A DNA stretch of 64,000 nt. Source: Octopus vulgaris. Its lineage: Eukaryota. The DNA lies in NCBI GenBank assembly GCA_951406725.2, contig OX597816.1, forward strand, positions 105,090,001-105,154,000. Direction: 5' to 3'. This document shows positions 11,031 to 63,690 of this stretch, in pieces. Under the pieces are notes generated by a model. It had not been told where the DNA came from, did not search any database, and worked only from the letters and a program-made list of their open reading frames with translations. A program made the position numbers and the translations under genes. Position 1 is the first letter of the stretch; every line of letters begins with the position of its first letter.

Positions 11031-11160
11031 GATTTTAAATTTCGCCGAGGTCGACTTTGCCTTTCATCCATTTCGGGGTTGATAAAATAAGTACCAGTTG
11101 AACACTGGGGTCAATGTAATAGACATATTCCCTACTCTGAAATTTCTGATTATTATCATT

Positions 11161-11322
11161 ATTTACATTATTTACATCATTTACAGTTGACGGATATTTG
11201 TCCTCATCTTGTTTGTTATTAACACAACGTTTCGGCTGATATACCCTCCAGCCTTCATCAGGTGTCTTGGGGAAATTTTGAACCTAGGTTCTCATTCCTA
11301 AGGTATTTTTCGATGTTGTTGC

Positions 11323-11381
<59 letters not shown>

Positions 11382-11455
11382 TCACTGCTTGGAACCGAAC
11401 TCGGAATCTTGGGATTTGTAGCCCGCGCGCTTAACCACTACGCCATTTGCCCGTG
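11161..11455 (-). mobile_element. tRNA-head / (AAT)n / hammerhead element, left arm of inverted pair A
   Basis: Minus strand: GGCGTAGTGGTTAAG (A box), GAGTTCGGTTCC (B box), (AAT)n, then gacacCTGATGAaggctg-loop-cagccGAAAcgttgtgtt. Confidence 0.8.
11221..11266 (-). ncRNA. Minimal type I hammerhead ribozyme motif with intact core
   Basis: Stem I acac/gtgt, CUGAUGA, stem II ggctg/cagcc, GAAA, and a palindromic loopless stem III (AACGTT), as in the dimer-cleaving minimal HHRs of Penelope-like elements. Confidence 0.75.
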
Positions 11456-11498
11456 TGTCCAGTGGCTTTCTCTGCCTAACCACTCTGTGCCATATACC

Positions 11499-11593
11499 TA
11501 CGGGCATATGGTTAAGAGCGCGGGCTACTAACCCCAAGATCTCGAGTTCGATTCCAGGCAGTGACGTGAATAATAATAATAATAATAATAATA

Positions 11594-11629
<36 letters not shown>

Positions 11630-11800
11630 TCGAAAAATACCTTAGGAATGAGAACCCAGGTTCGAAATTTCCCCAAGACACCTGGTGAAGGCTGGAGGGT
11701 ATTTCAGCTGAGATGTTGTGTTAACAACGAACAAGATGAGGACAAATATCCGTCAAATGTAAATAATTTACATAATTCCTCATCATTTAAATATAGAACT
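11499..11800 (+). mobile_element. tRNA-head / (AAT)n / hammerhead element, right arm of inverted pair A (HHR core mutated)
   Basis: Reverse complement of 11161-11455. A box partly deleted; core reads CTGGTGA...GAGA. Confidence 0.8.
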
Positions 11801-11801
11801 G

Positions 11802-11979: not shown

Positions 11980-12390
11980 GGCAATATCGTTAGAATATTT
12001 TACTGTTTTCACTTCTGGCTCTTTACGTTTTCAGTTCAAATCCCGCCGAGGCTAACTTCACTTTTCATTCTTTCGGGGTCGAAAAAATATGTACCAGTGA
12101 AAGAATGGCGTCGAAGGAATCGACTAAACTCCCACCCCACTGCTCTTGTGCTTTAATCTAAATGCATAAAACGGCGGATTCGCAGATTCGTTAGAACATC
12201 AGAAAATAAACCTTGCAATATTTCTTCCTAAGCATTTTGTACTAATTTCAAGTGCCGTCGAGGTTTGCTTTTCCTTTCATCATTTCGGGGTCGATAAAAT
12301 AAGTAAATAAGTACTAGTCAAGTGCTTGACTAGATATAATCAACCTCCCACTCCCCTCAAAATTACTGATTTTGTACTAAATTTAGGAAG
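11980..12390 (+). mobile_element. Two diverged tandem SINE family 1 copies
   Basis: tttcggggtcga(t/a)aaa core occurs near 12071 and 12283. Confidence 0.65.
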
Positions 12391-15574: not shown

Positions 15575-16760
15575 AAGCGGTGGTTTGAGAGAATGGTTAG
15601 AATGTCATTAAGATAATTGCCTTAAGGGAATTGTACCAATTCTTTACATTCTGAGTTCAAATCTCGTCTACATCGTCTTTACCTTTCAGTTCATTGAATT
15701 CAACAACATAAGGTACCAATCAATTACTGGGATCGATATGTCAATCATTCCCTTCCCCAAAATTTCAGGCGCTGTGTTGATATTAGAAACAATTATATTA
15801 TTCCATCCTGATCATTGACATATTGTCCTGTAACATATTTAACTTTTTATATTATTTTCAATACTGCTTTTATATTTTTTGGTAATAATTACTTCGTTTA
15901 ATCCAAGTCGGTGAGCTGGCAGAATCGGTAGCACGCCGAACAAAATGCCTAGCATTATATCGTCCGTCTTCACGTTCTGAGTTCAAATTCCGCCGAGCTC
16001 AACTTTGCTATTCATCATTTCGGGGTCGATAAATTAAATAATGGTTCAGCATTGAAGGTCGATATATGATCGACTTACCTCCTGCCTTGTACCAAAATTT
16101 ATTATTGCTTAACTAAAATGGTGGCAAGATAGCAGTATCGTTACCACGCCGGGCAAAATGCCTAGTGGCACTTCGTCCATCTTTACGTTCTGAGTTCAAA
16201 TTCCATTTTTCGGGGTCGATAAAATAAGTACCAATGAAATTCTGGGGTCGACGTGATCAACTAGTCCCCTCCCTCAAAAGTTCAGACCTTGTACCTAAAA
16301 TAGAAAGGATTAGTATAAAGCTAAAATGGCGGGGAGCTGGCAGAATCTTTACCACGCCGAGCAAAATGCTTAGTGGCACTTCGTCCGTCTTTACGTTCTG
16401 AGTTCAAATTCCACCGAGATCGACTTTGCCTTTTATCCTTTCGGAGGTCCATAAATTAAGTACTAGTGATACACTGGGATCGATGAAATCGACTGATCTC
16501 CTCCCCTAAAATTGCAGGCCTTGTGCCTTTAGTAGAAAGGATCATTAGATAGATTTTAAATTTTGGCACAAGACCAGCAATTTCGATGAAGCGGGTACAT
16601 CGAGTACGACTCTAGTGTACAACTGGTACTTATTTTATCAATCCGGAAAGTATGAAAGATAAAGTCACTCTGGGTAGAATTTGAACTCAGAACGTAGACA
16701 CGTACGAAATAACGCGAAGCATTTTGCCAGGCGTGCTAACGGTTCTGCCAGTACGCTACC
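15575..16760. mobile_element. Cluster of five SINE family 1 copies (four plus-strand tandem, one inverted)
   Basis: Heads near 15575, 15908, 16119 and 16328, each with ttctgagttcaaat. Reverse-complement copy at about 16555-16760. Confidence 0.82.
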
Positions 16761-17048: not shown

Positions 17049-17061
17049 TAAGTTCTTGTCT

Positions 17062-17125
17062 TAATAACTGATGAAAAATTCCTAGAAGCTTTCAGCTGAG
17101 GTATTTGAAACTCTGAGTATCATTA
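17062..17125 (+). ncRNA. Hammerhead ribozyme motif in the pLTR end (identical copy on minus strand at 17660-17723; mutated copy at ~19818-19880)
   Basis: taataa-CTGATGA-extended stem II (aaattcct...aggtattt)-GAAA-ctctgag-TA-tcatta. Near-palindromic minimal stem III; stem I has one mismatch. Confidence 0.65.
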
Positions 17126-17146
17126 TGACAATTTACTGATTGTCTT

Positions 17147-19905
<2,759 letters not shown>

Positions 19906-21895: not shown

Positions 21896-23867
21896 GTTTA
21901 TCAATGAAATATTTGATTTTTTTTTGTTCAGCTATTTCATTAAATTTTATAATTTTTTTAACATTTTTTCATATAATATATTTTGCACCGTACTTTAATT
22001 CATATTGTATTGCAATAAAATACATTCTTATTTTATATTTTGCTATTTTGCAATTAAAATATATGATTTTATGAAAGAGGCTCAATACTACAATTTTTTT
22101 TTTCTTTTTATAATCTGATCAACTACATTGATCCACATTGATCCAATGTCTGACTGGTACCTATCGATCTCAGTAAAATGCAAAGTCAATTTTGGCCAAT
22201 TTCAAACTGAGAGCATAAAATACATTACTAAATATTGCAAAGTGTTTGGTGTAAAATTCTAGCGTTTCGGCCAGTCTACCATCTATCAAATGATTACATA
22301 ACACATATATTATATCATTTTATGTAACATAATATCGCGTTATGTTATATCTTTAATAGTATCAATCATGATATTGAGCTACCACGAGTTTGATACTCCT
22401 GTAAAACATACAATTCCAGAAAGTACCTTCTTTCAAAATCATTAGTGAATGGCAGAATCTGTAGAGCACCAGATGAAATGCTTTCACGCTGTAAATATGT
22501 CCTTTTACACGTTTAATTGAAAACTTGCTGAGATCGACTTCGCTTTTTATCTTTCATTGAAGATGGTCATTGAAATAACTACCAGTCAAAGATTGGAGGT
22601 GCCCACCAAACAAATTACCTAGTATTGTACCAATCAAACAAATCGTTACTTCTACTTTTATTTTATTTTTATTCTTATATTGCTTTTTATAATATTTTAC
22701 AATATATCACCTTCAAAATCTTTTTTATAAGCCGTTAGTTATAAAGCAGAATATGCATCATCAATAGAATTTTAAAGTAACTATTTCAATAAAGTATTCT
22801 GATATTCAATCAGGAGGCCTAAAAAGATGGCAAACAAAATATAGCAAAGAAAATAAAATCCTTTTGTTGACAATTATACCAAAATTAAAATTCGACTTGG
22901 ACAAATCTTTTATTACAATTTAGTAATATATTTTTGCCATATTTTATTTTCAATTATCTTATAACAAATTAGCATAACGCTTTTGCCTTATATCATTTTC
23001 AGTTTTTATCGATTTTTTTACATTTCTATTTGCCAACGGTAATTACAGGACACTACTTTCTAGATATTCTCAAGGAGAAACGGATTCCATGCTTTATTCA
23101 CAAATGTAACCTTTCTTTATATTTTACTACATAATGATTGACAGGTGTTTATATGCCAGAAATTAGTTTCACAAAGTACTTACATAATTCAAGGGGCACG
23201 ATTTTCTGTATGTCTCGGATAATAACATGACAAATGAGTGTCTTTACTATTATTACATACTGCTGGTATCCAAGTCATTTCAATACGGCTAATTGCCCTC
23301 TGTTGATTAGAAATGGTCTAAACTGCACGTCTTTCCTATCTACACTAGTAAAAAATGTTGGTAAGAAGAGGAACATATCACTGAGTGGTTAGAATTCCAG
23401 ATAACTAGCCGTGATCGCGGTAGTTCGTATCCTGATCCGGTCACGATTTCAGAATTGTTCATGTGACCAAGATATATAACTCTCAAATGGCCTACTTCAA
23501 AGTTTTGCAAGAGTAACTACACTTTCTTTGTCCTATATAAGTTTATATTTAAAAGTACCAAACTACAATTCGCTTGCCTTGCTTCAATAATTTGTCAAAC
23601 CTTAGGATAAAATATTTATTTTTAAATACATTCCAAATTTTATGTCAAAACTCACTTTAGTAGCATTACATACCATTTTATTCCAATGGTCCGAGTTATA
23701 AAGAATGATTCTGAAATGTTATATAAGGAGTTTTATCTTACCAGTCCCATACTCCTGTAGCATTAACTAAGTAACTGAAGAATATATAAATTGATTTTAC
23801 AAGACAGGTCGACAGAGAGTTAGCCAGCTAGTCGGACAGTTAGCTTGTTAGCTAGCTAACAAGCTAG

Positions 23868-23871
23868 ATAG

Positions 23872-23903
<32 letters not shown>

Positions 23904-23910
23904 GCAGACA

Positions 23911-23943
<33 letters not shown>

Positions 23944-24005
23944 ACAGACAGATGGAGAGAGGGACCGACGGAGGGAGAGAGGGAGGGAGGGAGGGAGGGA
24001 TGGAT
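23868..24005. repeat. (GACA)n/(GGCA)n/(GGGA)n compound microsatellite
   Basis: Direct inspection. Confidence 0.9.
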
Positions 24006-25589
24006 GAGTGAATTGTGAAATACTATTCATTGTGGATAAGGCTCATCAATATTCGAACAAATGAAATAGTTACTTAAGTTAGGACACTAACACATATGAA
24101 AACTAAAATTCTTGACTCATGGAAGAGATTTTTCTATCAGCTTTTAAACTTACCTGCTTTTCTGATGTTTTGGTATAGTTTAAAATAGATGGTGTCCCAT
24201 TGTCCCTAATACTGACACCATGTAGGATACATTCTTATGATTAATTAAACAAGCGTTCAAATTTAAAGCTATGCATGACGGTATTAGTATTATACAAATT
24301 CTGCCTTTCCATGAGCTCCCTAACTGCAACCTTAGCACTTTTAAATATATATTAGCTATATGGCTTCACGGTATGTTTTCTACTATATTTATAATAGTTA
24401 AGTGTTGTCTACCTCTTTACATGAACGGCTGATGATTGCTTAGTTTGCACCTTGGATCAAGAGTACACCACTTAATTGTATCGACATCAATATTCCAAAT
24501 GTGATTGGTGTTGTGAAAACGCTAAAAGAAAAACTAAATCGAAAATTTTAATTATATTTCTTTAAATATACCATTACACAAAATGATTGAAGTATAATTA
24601 AATCGTTCTTTAGTTTCTAAACTACGCTAATGGTTTTTATTACATCTAAAGCTTTACTTGTGCTATAACAATTATCCTGTAATATCATGTGAAGCCAATA
24701 AAGTCGACGACTACATGTACAGTCGCAGTGAAGTATTTTTTCAAATGTATGAATGTAAGCAGAGTATAATTATTTTTAAAAAGTACTATATCAAAAGACG
24801 ACTATATTTTAAATTGCGTCGGGCGTAATAACCTCAGTAAACATTATCTTAAAAACATATACTTGTAATTCGATCAGTGTAAAATTGTTGTATATTTAAC
24901 ATCCCAGTTTGAAATGCTATCAGCTAGCTCTCGTAATTATTATATATTTCTAAAATTCCAAATGCATATGGACGTTTTATCTGTCATTGTGACTTATCTC
25001 CCTTCAATAATCAACGTTTTTAAACTCGAAAAAAACTTCACTCAATCGTGCCTTGAGACAAAAATTAACGTTTTTATATCTATAAAAACAAAATAAATAT
25101 TTTCTTTTCTCTATCTCTTTCTCTCTCGTAATTATAGTTTAACTCGTGTTTGTCCGCAGGAATTATTTTAATTAAACATATTTTCTTTCATTTTTAATAT
25201 TGAATTTAAAAACAAAATACTTAAACTTCAAAATATATCGTAATTTTAAGCAGTTTCTATATGGCTTCTTTCTGTCAATTTTTTTTTCTTGTTTTGAGTC
25301 ATTTCTATGAATAATTTTCTTGCAGATTTATTTAACAAAATTATTGTATGAAAACTAATTAATGATTAATAAAAGTAAACAAATCAATAATTTCACTCTT
25401 GTTCCAGGCCTCGTTTTTTATATTGTGATTTCCACAATTTGTTAAACTGTTGAGGTAAAAAAAAAACTACTTTCTTTTAATTTTGATGAATTATTATGAA
25501 AATGTATGTCCAGATTTACTTTCGGATTTTCATAAGTTTCTTTTTGACGTGGCACAAGATCTTACATTTTGGAAGTAGGTTATTTTTGT

Positions 25590-28880: not shown

Positions 28881-31735
28881 ATCATGTAACACAGTGTTAT
28901 TTTCATTCTTAGTAAAAAAAAATGTTTAGCTTTTGACCAGCTGACAATTTATTTAGATTAGCATACAGCAAGGATGTGTAATTTGACTATAACTTACATG
29001 CATTTAAAAAAAAATTTCATTTATATATCTTCTTGCGAACAGATTGTTGTTTTTCATAAAAATTATATTCAAAATGGTATTTATCTAAATGCAGAGCCTT
29101 TTATAGTATTTTGCATTCGTTGTTTCGTCAAATTGGCATTCAAGGCTTTACGCTTTATAAACTGCAACCGAATATTTACAAATAAGCTACACATATTTTC
29201 CAAACTTTTCTGTGAAAATGAATAATTATTTGTCCATTTTTCATAGTTCAAAGGACTTTCACCGGAAACGGATTATTTTTATACTCTTTACATGATTCGC
29301 TTAAAATTTTCAATTAAAACAGGCAAATGAACTATAAATACTGCGAATATTCAAAATTATTGTACTTAACTTGTAATGACACAAGTAACCCAGAGTTTAA
29401 ATTCACATCTATTTATTCATTACCAATAAAAACATTACCAATAACAATATACCCCCGCATGCAGAGATTCAGTGAGAAAGAGGGCAAATGCTAAGTGTTA
29501 AATGTTCATTGGTTGTAATAAAGATGCGAGGCTGTCATCAGTTCGTGTTTATTCCTAATCATTAATTTCATAATACAACGTTTGCATATGACTAATATTA
29601 AATTAATATGATTTTTAGGATTAAGCTTTTTTTAAGCTTTTTCTTGTCGATTTTAGAGACCTTCGTCGTCAAGTGATTTCAGTTTTCAATGAGTGTGAAA
29701 TTTTTCCCGCGGACAAGGGGCGAAGGGATCTGTCTTAAATAACAAAAAATACAACGGACGATGGAGCTGTTCCTAATATACATGAAGATGAAATAATCAC
29801 AGTCAGAGCACCTTGGAACAAAACAACAACGTATGTTCTATCTAAAACGTTACATTTAAAGTGGCCTAATTATATTTTTGGAGAGGAATTACAAGTGAGT
29901 TTTAACACTATTTGGAAGACTTTAGACAAATCAAATATTACTAGATCGAATGTCACCTTTTCTGAGAGATTTCACATGAGAGTTGTGATCGGAGGTGAAC
30001 CTAATTCCCATCTTCCTTGAATTATTGAAAAATAGGTAGCACCACCACTGATTTAACCAATATAGGGCCTAAAAGAGGACTAACAACAGATAAAACAACC
30101 ACAATAGGAGAGCCAGAAAACTTTATGCAGTCACTCGACTTACTCGAAATAGGGACAAATTTCCTCTCACAATTTACTGCTCACGTCTGAAACAAGTTGA
30201 TTGGATAATATTATTGTGTGATGTATCTGTGGTCTTGTAATCTATTACAGGCCCCTGGTATTGATAAATTAATCGAGGACAATTAGATTAGAATTCACTA
30301 ATATTATCAAAGTGTAACAATAGAGTACTCTCGAATAAAGAGGCTTATAATAAAGAAACTGGAGCAGGCCTGCAAGAAAGTTATTGCGACCGATATGATG
30401 TACCATTTCTCCTACTCTAAACATGAAGGCTGAGTTAATAGTGTTATAACTTGAATCCTAAAGTATAAAAGTACAAAGGACTACGAGATTCGAAGACATG
30501 GCAACAAAGGTAAATTATGGCAATAAAACCACGATGTAGTATCAGACAACACATAACAGGCTTAATGTCCGACTTTGAGCAAATGTATGCAATCTTCAAA
30601 GAGTCCTTTCACAAACTGAAGAAAGTGGAGAAAGTGGGTGGAAACAGGGAACTTCTAAAATTTGACTCAACAGGCAGCCTTGTCTCTCGTGTTAGAGAGT
30701 TAGGAATATGTGTGGAAAGACTACTATAGGCCCCCTGGTGCAGGAAACGTACTTAGTAGTTGTGAGAGGAGTGAATAGCCTGGACTGAATGATCTCTATG
30801 ATTTTATACTAAAATTCTAGAGTTGTCTTTTTCTGTCTTTCTTGACATACCTCTGCTGGGATTAATGTTGTTTAAGATAGGAAAGAACTGAAACGTGCTC
30901 TTAAGGAATGACGCAAAATATAGGCGATGCTGAAAATCACTTAGATTCTAGGCTAGGATAATGTGTGAGCTAAGAGATTGGCGCTTGTTCTTCGTAGTAT
31001 CATCAGTCCTACACAAGTTTATGCGCTTCTGCAAAGATGTATTCAAGACAACATTCGTTTGAATCAATACACTTAAGAAGTAGGGAATAGTTTTCGTTTG
31101 TTTTTTGTTAGTTTATTATTTTTTTGTGTGTATGTGTATTGAGTGAAGATATAAAGGTCAGTTGAATGTACCCAACAAAACACTTGCTAAAGCAACAACA
31201 CATGTTGTTTGACCACGTTTAGCTTAAAGTGTTGAAGGTCAAGTCAAGTGGTTTTCAATTATTTTTGTTCAAACACCTTCTCTTAATCATGTAAAGGTCA
31301 TCAAATTATCCTCACACCTTATTACGCTTCTAATGAGTTAGCTAAGTGTCAAACGTTTGGTTGAATCAACCTCCACAACTGTATATACTGGGGAGCTGAG
31401 AAATCGCATATTATGGAGGAACATCGTGTTAATTTACCAGGAATTACTGTAAGGTACATCTTATCATCAAAAGAATTATTTGGATTTTTTTTCACAGTAC
31501 TGTAACTGATCCCATTTATTTGAACTTGCTAGAATAATCTGTCATGCCAAGCAAGTATTTTATGATGTTGCTATTTTTATAAGCAACACGGGGTACCCTC
31601 ACATTTCCATACTAATGTTAGGGTCTTTCGTCGGTCCGAGGTTATAGCAAGAAATACGTGTCTGAGGTGTTTAGTGCTGAGACTGAACATGTGATTCAGA
31701 CGCGAAACTCTTGCCACTCGGCCACTACAGCTCAT

Positions 31736-31992
<257 letters not shown>

Positions 31993-34700
31993 AGCTCTTT
32001 TCTAGTATTTTAAATTCTCATATAAAATATATCTACAAATATACTTCGGATACGGGAAATGCAGATTTGCTTCATGAGGACACAGTTTTGATTATAACCC
32101 TATCAACATACTCTGATTATATAAGAGAATAGGAGGAGACACGTGGGATGGAGAGTATCTGAAGAGGTCACAGGGTCTGTGACGAAAAATTCCGAAACAC
32201 AGGACATAAAATAAGAACAATAATAAATCTGGAGTGAAGGACGAACATATAGTGTGTGGGTTTATTTGGAAAAAAATGACCGTGTCTAAAGAAAGAAAGA
32301 AAGAAAGATGTGTTTTGATAGGCAATCGTTGTATATAAAATGTATATATAAGCATATATGGATGCTTGCCCTGTTTTGTTGTTTCATTCATAATGAAGAG
32401 AAGAGAAGAGAAATAATTATCTCTAATACATTGCTGTGTGTCTTGATATCTTCAGATTGAGAAACATTGCACTATATAATAGTGTTAGTCAAGCGGCCAA
32501 TGTTGTCACGACACAGCTGAGTGAAATATCCAGTATTAGAGTATATTTCTTGAGTAAATGAAAGCCATATGAGGTGAGGCAGACATAGTAGCAATAATGT
32601 TCTTTTAACTGGCATCATTTAAAAGAAAACCTATTTTGAACTATATGTACTAATGTGTCTTTTTCCTTATTTCTTTTTCTCTTTTTGTTTTTCTTTTTTT
32701 TTTTTTGAGACAGCAGAGTGTGGCTTCAGGAAAATTTGGTTGCTATTTCTAATCGGCCTAGTGATTACATACCGGGTGACACGACCTACGAGAAATAGCA
32801 GCTTATCTCATTCTACCGATTGCTACTGGATTTCTTAAGTATATAAACAGTTGGCTGCTTGTTTCTCTCTGAGATTGGTCAAATGGATGTAAATACCTCT
32901 GATTAGAATCCAGTAAGGTTCGAAAATCGATTTAAGTTGTAATCGTTTTTTCAATCTACGGATAAATAGCTAAAATTGCCCTGTTTATATGTCTTTCATA
33001 TAGGCTACATGTTTTTTTTAAAATGAGTTACCCGCGACTGGAACGCTTTTCTTCTATATGTCGACTTAAACAGGACGCAGCTAGGACTAAACAACAACGA
33101 TGTCCGGGGAGAAAGCATCTCTCATATAGAAGGAATTGCTCTTAATCAATCTTGTTATATGTAAGGATATCTTACACACACACACACACACACACACACT
33201 TCAGCCATTGGACTATACCGCTATGCCGAGACGCTACTTTGAAGGCTTGAGTCAAATAAACCATCCTCGGTACATATTTTTGAAGTCTGGTACTTATTCT
33301 ATCGATCTCTTTTGCGGGGACGTAAACAAACCAATATACATACATATATATGTATGCATGTATTTATGTATGTACATGCACACACATACATACACGTAAA
33401 TTCAAATATATATGCATACATATGTATATATACACACGCACACACACACACACACACATCTACATACTTATGTACATACACGTAAATGCAAATACATATA
33501 TATGCATACATATGTATATATACACATATATGCACACACACACACATACACATCTACATACTTATGTATATATACATATTTGCACACTCACACTTTTGAG
33601 CGTAGGCACAGAAAGTGTCTATGATACATATAGTATGTATCAAAATAGAGAAACGGTGGCAAAGCAGGGATACCGAAATATGCAAACAGGGATGTGTAGG
33701 CGACAAAAAAGATAAATGAATTGACTGTGTGTGCGCGCGAGTGAATGTGTGAGAGAGTGTGTATCTGCGGAATGCTAAAACCCTTGGCGATTATGGTGCA
33801 AGGGAGATAACTTCGGAACGACTTTTATTTTAATAACCATACAAATTTATCACTGCCGCACTTTGGATCAGTTTCTTTTTAGCCATATAAATAGATGAAT
33901 GGCCTTTAATAATGTGTGGACGCAACGATTTCCTATTTTGTGGGCATCAATAAGCCAGAAGAGAGGATAAAATATCACGCACTTAAGTGATATATATATC
34001 ATTAATCAACAAACCTATCATCAAAGGTTTTCTAGCTGTGACTCATCCTCATTTTACAAATCAGTGACATTTGCCTTGTGTATCTTGCTATTTAAGGGAA
34101 ATTTAGCTGCTATTTTTAGCAATTCCAGCAACAAAATAGGCTTCCTCTTTAATTCAGACTATAGTACATTAGATTTTAGCTTTGTCTAATTTTATTTTCT
34201 TTCGTCTATTTTCAGGATTCAAAAACCCTATATGGATTTACTTAGCCTCAGATGGTATGAGTAGATAATATGGGTAGCTGTTGTCGTCTTTCTTTCGGTC
34301 TACCAGTTAGGGTATACCTATGGCAAGAGGAATTTCTAAACTTAAACATCGTGTTTATTTTGGCATATCTTAGTTTTAAGAAAGTCGTTCTTTTAAAGAT
34401 AAGACTGTCAGCATTTTGTTGTTTCTTAATAATGTTAATCATAAAATTTCAACCCACTAAGTATAACTTCATTTTGGCATTGCTCCTTTGGTGTTGTCAT
34501 TGAAAGGGATCGAAATCTTAACCAATCATTTCTACAACAGAAACTAAAAAGTTTCATTGTTTATTTTCATTGTTACAAACTTTAGAAAAGATACATTTAA
34601 TTGATACGTACGCTTAGATGGCTCATTATTACTTTTAATTTATATAAAAAAAAAAAAAGAAAGATTCTAACGCTTACAATTTGCAAGTGCTTGAGTAACT

Positions 34701-36080: not shown

Positions 36081-36311
36081 GGCGGCGAGCTGGCAGAAAC
36101 GTTAAGCACGCCGGGCGAAATGCGTTGCCGTATTTCGTCTGCCGTTACGTTCCGAGTTCAAATTCCGCCGAGGTCGACTTTGCCTTTCATCCTTCCGGGG
36201 TCGATAAATTAAGTACCAGTTGCGCACTGGGGTCGATGTAATCTACTTAATCCGTTTGTCCGTCCGTGTTTGTCTCCTCTGTGTTTAGCCCCTTGTGGGT
36301 AGTAAAGAAAT
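36081..36311 (+). mobile_element. Young full-length SINE family 1 copy
   Basis: ggcggcgagctggcagaaacg...gagttcaaattccgccgaggtcgactttgcctttcatcc...ccccttgtgggtagtaaagaaata. Confidence 0.9.
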
Positions 36312-60443: not shown

Positions 60444-60623
60444 CTGTTCTATATTTAAGAGATGAGGAATTATGTACATTATTTACATTATTTACATTTG
60501 ACGAATATTTATCCTCATTTTGTTTATTGTTAACACAACGTTTCGGCTAATATACCCTCTAGCCTTCAACAGGTGCCTTGGGGAAATTTCGAACCTGGGT
60601 TCTCATTCCTGACGTATTTTTCG

Positions 60624-60688
<65 letters not shown>

Positions 60689-60838
60689 TATTATTCAGGT
60701 CACTGCTTGGAATCGAACTCGGAATCTTGGGGTTAGTAGCCTACGCTCTTAACCACTACGCCATTTGCCCGTGGGCGTAGTGGTTAAGAGCGTGGGCTCT
60801 ATCCCCAAGATTCCGAGTTCGATTCCAAGCAGTGACCA

Positions 60839-60913
<75 letters not shown>

Positions 60914-61003
60914 GTTCGAAATTTCCCCAAGACGCCTGATGGATTGTGTTAACACCAAACAAGATGAGGACAAATATCCGTCAAATGTAAATAATGTATA
61001 TAA
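60444..61003. mobile_element. tRNA-head / (AAT)n / hammerhead element, inverted pair B
   Basis: Minus arm 60444-60773 with HHR at ~60532-60577 (core CTGTTGA...GAAA), joined directly to a plus arm 60774-61003 whose HHR stem II and GAAA are deleted. Same family as 11161-11800. Confidence 0.82.
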
Positions 61004-61016
61004 TGTACTACTACAT

Positions 61017-62794: not shown

Positions 62795-63032
62795 GAGCTG
62801 GCAGAATCGTTAGCACACCGGCGAAGTGCTTAGCAGCATTTCGTCCGTCTTTATGTTCTGAGTACAAATTCTGGCGTGGTCGACTTTACGTTTGACCCTT
62901 TCGGGTTCGATAAAATAGGTAACACTGAGATCAATAAAATATCGGATTCGATAAAATAGGATCACTGAGATCGATGTAATCGACTTATTCCCTTCCCCAA
63001 ACTTACTGGCTTTGTGCCAAAGTTTTTAACCA
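62795..63032 (+). mobile_element. SINE family 1 copy with a small internal duplication
   Basis: gagctggcagaatcgttagc head; ttcgataaaatagg..cactgagatc occurs twice. Confidence 0.8.
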
Positions 63033-63488: not shown

Positions 63489-63690
63489 GGCGGTTAACTG
63501 GCAAAATCGTTGCCATGCCGGGAAAAATGCTTAGCGACATTTCTTCCGGCATTACGTTCTGAGTTCAAATGCCGCAGGCGTCGACTTTGCTTTGCAACCT
63601 TTTGGAGTCGATAAAATAAGTACCAGTTAAACACCGGGGTTGATGAAACCGACTTAACCCCTTCCCCCAAATTGATAGCCCTGTGCCAGT
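63489..63690 (+). mobile_element. SINE family 1 copy
   Basis: ggcggttaactggcaaaatcgtt...gagttcaaat...gtcgataaaataagtaccag. Confidence 0.82.

Follow-up and report, generated by a model that had tools for sequence, protein, structure and literature searches.

A tRNA-derived A/B-box head in the pseudo-LTR of a hammerhead-bearing Penelope-like element of Octopus vulgaris

A dispersed unit of about 300 nt in the genome of Octopus vulgaris is the pseudo-LTR together with the ORF start of a Penelope/Poseidon-type element residing in the same genome. This pseudo-LTR carries a tRNA-derived A/B box, and the numerous short copies probably stem from RNA started by RNA polymerase III (Pol III) and copied by the element's own reverse transcriptase (RT), a reading of the combined evidence to which we assign a probability of about 0.7. 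The first-pass annotation of this DNA had described a ~300-bp unit made of a tRNA-like head, an (AAT)n tract, a hammerhead and a short tail. Such a unit is real: the window (the whole stretch of DNA that was analysed, 64 kb) holds two inverted copies, A (11160-11452, minus strand) and B (11502-11801, plus strand), which are 89% alike, and a second inverted pair at 60446-61007. Copies A and B together form one head-to-head insertion, of which a single arm carries the tail, and the features of the two insertions are as follows.

11381-11452, minus strand: tRNA-like head of copy A, 72 nt, a likely Pol III promoter
11435-11445 and 11391-11402, minus strand: A box and B-box variant of copy A
11318-11377, minus strand: (AAT)n/(AAC)n tract of copy A, of variable length among copies
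11160-11317, minus strand: body of copy A, the start of the Penelope-like ORF, with the short 3' end and without the tail
11295-11293, minus strand: ATG of the ORF in copy A, followed by a stop at codon 4 in this copy
11221-11266, minus strand: intact minimal type I hammerhead motif of copy A, within the coding frame, with features as in PMC4209133
11226/11225, minus strand: predicted hammerhead cut of copy A, between these two positions
11453-11501, no strand: head-to-head junction with an extra partial, degenerate piece of head
11502-11568, plus strand: tRNA-like head of copy B, with the A box partly deleted and the B box at 11544-11555
11569-11625, plus strand: (AAT)n tract of copy B
11626-11801, plus strand: body of copy B, with the long 3' end
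11677-11722 and 11776-11801, plus strand: mutated hammerhead core and optional tail of copy B
60446-60773, minus strand: second insertion, arm carrying the tail, its hammerhead with one core change
60774-61007, plus strand: second insertion, inverted arm with internal deletions and without the tail

The ~300 nt of the unit comprise the tRNA-like head, the (AAT)n tract and a body of ~185 nt, the latter including the minimal hammerhead motif and an optional tail of ~30 nt. The promoter boxes originally reported do occur, but in different copies: the A box as quoted belongs to copy A alone and the B box as quoted to copy B alone, so that the unit as first described is a composite. The hammerhead is intact in copy A (11221-11266) and has a mutated core in copy B. 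An exact 35-mer spanning the hammerhead occurs 1598 times in the 2.8-Gb genome, with 0 occurrences of the control, and five body matches in 606,475 bases that had been fetched for other purposes (~8 per Mb) correspond to ~2x10^4 copies, a rough estimate with a wide error. Sequencing runs of six organisms contain the stretch, no RNA run being listed among the indexed ones. The copies fall into two subfamilies, Y and O, which have the core and stem II in common and differ in loop II and at other sites.

The link with a Penelope-like element rests on the junctions between the unit and the ORF. A profile scan of the loci detected remains of an RT thumb and a GIY-YIG domain directly upstream of some heads, and ORF-bearing long copies end in head, tract and hammerhead in five cases out of five, the head beginning 25 nt past the ORF stop codon. 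At the other end, the tail or 3' module precedes the ORF in 14 of 16 ORF 5' ends (out of 40 scored), five of the 16 also having the tRNA head; one of these copies (L355) starts at the tRNA 5' end and three of the 16 (L356, L357, L359) follow the element's own 3' end. The modules are ordered as ORF end, tRNA-like head, (AAT)n, ATG, hammerhead motif, tail and rest of the ORF. Specifically, the body frame opens at an ATG 34 nt before the core and reads through the hammerhead and the tail into the ORF (L351), its translation beating all 500 shuffles against the N-terminus of an intact 847-aa homolog (P0003) in all eight stop-free copies among the 22 examined, and the 6-nt insertion present in 23 of the 23 subfamily O copies read is in frame. 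The ORF is 55% identical to P0003, with homologs overall at 38-68%. What had been taken for the short tail of a SINE-type unit is the start of this protein-coding ORF, and it is not a LINE 3' end, in line with the earlier proposal. Moreover, the RT/GIY-YIG element of Penelope type sharing the hammerhead and tail that had been postulated was found in the same genome, although the unit is this autonomous element's own pseudo-LTR and ORF start, with the tRNA head, in both subfamilies and is probably not a separate non-autonomous SINE-retrozyme hybrid.

The partner family gave 5887 first-look candidates, and the 150 that were scored are all broken, the longest open frame having 569 aa, with an RVT_1 match (E 2.7e-6) just under the curated cut-off and a GIY-YIG-like C-terminus. 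The CX2-5CxxC linker before the endonuclease, a criterion for Neptune/Nematis (PMC8557442), is absent from the partner translation, and the partner protein separates from the Neptune-like ORFs of the genome at 100/100 in a tree that contains no named Poseidon reference; it is therefore by motif that the partner is placed with Penelope/Poseidon, and every feature tested is that of a Penelope-like element. Neptune-like elements of this genome were considered as the partner and rejected, having no sequence match, different hammerheads and insertion in (TA)n. These elements form at least five families (L031-L060, L081-L100), one with many open frames of 781 aa, insert in (TA)n and carry hammerheads with core variants, including a U3-A8 covariant. 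A search by exclusion patterns, aimed at a partner with just a portion of the 3' end in common, returned no more than unit variants among the matches listed (100 of 710 in one search). A short intron spliced out across the tail was rejected, since it is the unspliced frame that matches P0003, and alternative 5' sequences before the AAT tract, at first candidates for other heads, are later insertions into the tract. Other retroelement 3' ends lie within the (AAT)n tract at L009, L018, L027, L135 and L183, and a second family lies there at L002, L004, L112, L132, L133, L181, L192, L196 and L347; one of the inserted retroelements ends in an ORF whose C-terminus we take to be like that of R4/Dong-type elements, which would presumably target AAT repeats.

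The insertions have a two-armed anatomy, with an inverted head-to-head neighbour beside 14/29, 8/20, 11/29 and 14/29 focal copies in four locus sets (one locus lacked a focal match and one duplicate was dropped). Among 210 body matches there are 62 head-to-head, three tail-to-tail and six direct pairs (a few counted twice), against six head-to-head and six tail-to-tail pairs among 176 matches of another tRNA-like repeat used as control. The 3' ends are of two kinds, one lying 46-73 nt and the other 84-93 nt beyond the predicted cut site, and exactly one arm has the long end, with the tail, in 50 of the 52 classifiable pairs (ten were unclassifiable and a few were counted twice). None of 39 classified pairs mixes subfamilies, and a shared flank word of 8-14 nt accompanies 22 of 55 pairs, a few of them counted twice, where ~1 would be expected, the sign of one target duplication (7-14 bp) around the two arms. 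The arms might derive from different RNA templates: those of the same pair are slightly more alike than shuffled pairs (92.6% vs 91.9%) and differ in eight of 36 comparisons at two common sites, but one of these sites is a mutation hot spot. Where visible, long ORF copies have the same inverted arms or duplications. This pattern is the ordinary part of the findings, a known Penelope signature: an adjacent inverted 5'-truncated copy and a pseudo-LTR formed by partial tandems are the architecture of endonuclease-bearing Penelope-like elements (PMC8557442), and the protein of the anole Poseidon nicks and extends both strands, with two internal RT start sites that explain the one-sided tail (PMC11167929). 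At L027, the optional tail, in the 3' 85 nt of the body, has a predicted pairing, scored without a shuffle control, with purine-rich sequence upstream; the resulting hairpin would enclose the short 3' ends.

The hammerhead is of the minimal Penelope type that had been proposed, copy A showing every feature listed in PMC4209133 (short helix I, long helix II, an extra base after A9, G10.1-C11.1 and a palindromic helix III, 15.2-16.2): its stem I has 4 bp and a G.U pair, followed by CUGAUGA, one extra A, a 6-bp stem II, GAAA, a palindromic CG and a UU cut site. Relatives from metagenome contigs (6/79 loci) have the same layout with other stem II sequences. Three checks came out negative: Rfam calls no hammerhead in the unit, no stem covariation is demonstrable within the family, the double changes in stem II fitting common transitions by eye, and genomic copies diverge about as much in the hammerhead as elsewhere (4.0% vs 4.4%, p 0.57), as expected for dead copies. 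The core is intact in 12 of 41 unselected copies, and an apparently lower core divergence (2.3% vs 3.9%) was discarded as a selection artefact, unselected copies having no such difference. Cofolding of two monomers gave no clear double hammerhead, and RNA-seq of a related organism contains no read ends at the predicted cut site and, among the joints listed, no cut-site back-joint; for the anole element, no read ends were found at the hammerhead site either, and cleavage depended on protein, while insertion in vitro did not require it (PMC11167929). In RNA viruses, ribozyme cleavage can promote cap-independent translation (PMC13725137); in the octopus element the predicted cut falls within the coding frame, an argument against such a role. 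Two other hammerhead-bearing repeats were observed. At L205 (G000:C25:19152500-19156500), a two-armed insertion with a Y-type lead contains ~33 head-to-tail units of 76 bp, each made of the hammerhead part with an O-type loop; the array resembles that of retrozymes and could allow dimeric hammerheads to form. A second abundant group of short repeats (L141-L170, L201-L204) has a minimal hammerhead motif with a 4-bp stem II and ends in (TA)n, with no ORF linked to it in those loci.

The head of copy A aligns without gaps over 72 nt with a tRNA-Arg(TCG) gene of the octopus genome, scoring 69 where 200 shuffles reached at most 48. For the heads of other unit copies the top match is Arg, in some cases level with Ala, in a comparison set of 30 tRNA loci from a few isotypes only. 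Neither ARAGORN nor Rfam calls the head as a tRNA; its acceptor-stem pairing is largely gone, and the A and B boxes are retained in both subfamilies. Of 101 head matches, 59 start within ten bases around the tRNA start (positions 1-10) and the other 42 are spread over 49 positions; only eight of the 59 run on into an element 3' end, with about four more by eye, so that ~50 of the 101 begin at the tRNA 5' end. This pile-up coincides with the tRNA +1 plus a few bases of leader, and a start site at the tRNA 5' end would be its simplest reading. No TATA-like word is evident by eye before the hammerhead, unlike in several relatives. The tRNA copy is a likely Pol III promoter of the short, SINE-like copies, as judged from its sequence and from these ends, and may also drive the whole protein-coding element. 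In three RNA-seq runs of the related organism, neither read starts nor read ends accumulate at the head or cut site, a weak result given equal strand depth in libraries that look unstranded; the runs contain plentiful embedded reads on both strands and joints between the inverted arms and the head, and they neither show nor exclude a free Pol III RNA. A distant relative on a metagenome contig (L266:2815-2920) has, between the ORF end and the hammerhead, a short run of AAT and a tRNA-like stretch containing words similar to A and B boxes; the stretch has a marginal score of 51, equalled by one of 200 shuffles, and no Rfam match, the element has two T4 runs in 2.7 kb, and it possibly represents a second or older tRNA capture.

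A run of four T (T4) terminates Pol III transcription in animals. The sense strand of a full-length copy (L262) contains 25 runs of at least three T, none of them of four, in 2622 nt, and 21 alignments covering 12,298 bases contain three T4 runs, each private to one copy, against 190 A4 runs; L263 has one further private T4 run. In related elements, T4 accounts for 122 of 486 TTT runs and 32 of 34 elements hold at least one, a rate at which the chance of 0/25 is 7x10^-4. Against the element's own sequence, the lack is not significant under a Markov test (P 0.06), and codon-shuffle tests were mostly not significant (P 0.10, 0.12, 0.035 and 0.61). Moreover, two of the 34 control elements are also free of T4 over a shorter 1.2-1.6 kb, one unrelated ORF has T4 in only one of 23 TTT runs, and the lack is one evolutionary observation from a single lineage. 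Taken to its limit, the argument would make this an autonomous Penelope-like element with a captured tRNA-gene promoter, transcribed by Pol III end to end, with T4 purged from its 2.6-kb sense strand, its uncapped RNA translated and the element serving as its own SINE factory, a bold proposal that we regard as less likely than not.

In the mechanism that best fits these data, Pol III would start RNA at the tRNA-like promoter in the pseudo-LTR, and the element protein, by analogy with the anole Poseidon, would nick both DNA strands and begin cDNA synthesis at two sites within the RNA, which lie ~50-70 and 85-93 nt beyond the cut (PMC11167929). Priming near the 5' end of the transcript would yield only the ~300-nt module and priming at the downstream repeat would yield ORF-bearing copies, the lack of T4 allowing Pol III to transcribe across the ORF. 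Cleavage by the hammerhead would require a dimer or help from protein, and the ribozyme is perhaps dispensable for insertion.

A rather unlikely alternative, compatible with this mechanism, holds that the short unit is an independent non-autonomous SINE whose short copies act as Pol III source genes and are mobilised in trans by the Penelope-type protein. Among head-bearing matches there are ~9 short copies for each ORF-linked one; the short copies contain the promoter boxes, the hammerhead and both priming sites, and a codon-4 change that creates a stop is common (present in 21 of the 94 Y copies for which this base was called). However, ORF-linked copies occur in both subfamilies (Y 14, O 2), the reading frame is kept in both, and no short-only subfamily was seen in 219 matches. 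The codon-4 change also recurs in subfamily O (2/23) and in ORF-linked copies, without linkage to other sites, and therefore reads as a mutation hot spot; lastly, the RNA of the anole element must extend past the priming sites, which isolated short copies do not provide (PMC11167929).

It is also unlikely, and slightly more so, that the tRNA-like piece is inert and that the transcripts are made by Pol II, the ends at the head arising from a Pol II start or from RT stalling at the folded tRNA-like RNA. Promoters in the pseudo-LTR are the rule for most Penelope elements (PMC6765202), some templates start upstream, since three of the 16 full-length 5' ends extend beyond the head, the 5' ends are scattered over ~10 nt, and RT stalling at a structure can give 5' pile-ups as well. 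On the other side, both subfamilies have retained the A and B boxes where the acceptor stem has largely decayed, the pile-up matches the tRNA +1 with its short leader, and neither a TATA-like word before the hammerhead (by eye) nor T4 runs are present. An ordinary tRNA SINE mobilised by a LINE, with a hammerhead-like string present by chance, would agree with the missing Rfam match and the missing covariation within the family, but has next to no probability left: the insertions are two-armed with a one-sided tail and have no simple-repeat 3' tail, relatives preserve the hammerhead layout with different stems, and the body is the ORF start of an RT/GIY-YIG element. ORF copies that end in the unit and ORF starts that are preceded by it refute this explanation.

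Among described elements, the closest is Poseidon_Ac of Anolis, which likewise has a single ORF with RT and C-terminal GIY-YIG and without the zinc-finger linker of Neptune/Nematis, a partial-tandem pseudo-LTR, an adjacent inverted 5'-truncated copy, an optional tail of 30-40 nt on one end and a minimal hammerhead overlapping the ORF start (PMC11167929; PMC8557442; PMC4209133). In contrast to Poseidon-clade elements as those sources present them, only the octopus element has a pseudo-LTR described with a tRNA-derived A/B box and (AAT)n, most of its copies begin at the tRNA start in the manner of SINEs, and its sense strand is without T4. A Pol III-type head combined with a hammerhead has been published for schistosomes: the SINE-like repeats SM-alpha and Sj-alpha place a Pol III-type promoter before a type I hammerhead in a short repeat, but are often in tandem and cleave in vitro, and the account in PMC6765202 reports no autonomous element that contains them. 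The octopus hammerhead, by comparison, has the minimal form found in Penelope elements and is embedded in a coding frame, within a unit that belongs to an autonomous element. Animal non-LTR retrozymes are also short, hammerhead-bearing and derived from Penelope pseudo-LTRs, and are defined by head-to-tail arrays, a hammerhead per unit and circular RNA (PMC7229834; bioRxiv 10.64898/2026.07.22.740005); the octopus copies are single or head-to-head and have a tRNA head, only six direct pairs occurring among the 210 matches, and the unit is not a tandem retrozyme. The elements Cassandra, Helenus and Ajax similarly carry a small-RNA-gene-derived sequence of Pol III type in a retroelement terminal repeat, yet these are non-autonomous LTR elements, whereas the octopus case concerns the pseudo-LTR of an ORF-bearing Penelope-like element (PMC10886601).

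The unit shares with tRNA-derived SINEs the tRNA head, a length below 700 bp, a high copy number and target duplications, and differs from them in its coding body, in its Penelope-like partner and in the lack of a simple-repeat 3' tail. By the SINEBase criteria, it has the length (<700 bp) and the tRNA-derived head of a SINE and lacks the LINE partner and the simple-repeat tail, that is, it works like a SINE and fails on these two features. The short unit may already bear a SINE name, as one of the octopus families OK, OR1 and OR2 that Ohshima and Okada reportedly described in 1994; the "OR" of OR1 and OR2 we take to be linked to tRNA-Arg.

In the main texts returned by searches of the open-access literature, no tRNA or Pol III promoter in a Penelope pseudo-LTR and no Penelope-mobilised SINE are described, and short non-autonomous Penelope elements are mentioned there without a tRNA head (PMC6685494; PMC8557442). 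What appears new is the predicted tRNA-derived A/B-box promoter inside a Penelope pseudo-LTR, with 5' ends at its putative start and a T4-free copy of 2.6 kb. A high-copy tRNA family that looks like a SINE is in this way tied to a Penelope-like element instead of a LINE, and a pseudo-LTR that takes up a tRNA gene ahead of the sites where RT is primed offers a route to such families; repeat annotations in this animal group may count Penelope end modules as SINEs. If the T4-free ORF does reflect Pol III transcription, the element would be a protein-coding retrotransposon driven by Pol III and a testable case of uncapped-RNA translation. Moreover, thousands of short two-armed insertions with clean target duplications constitute a large natural data set on how Penelope elements integrate.

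Other repeats were recorded in the window. The tRNA-like dispersed repeat that served as control has seven copies (36107-36256, 939-1088, 11985-12134, 15932-16081, 16353-16502, 62813-62962 and 63514-63663), a palindromic (TA)n microsatellite of ~680 nt occupies 17052-17733, and two low-complexity repeat blocks lie at 23842-24029 and 31716-32006.
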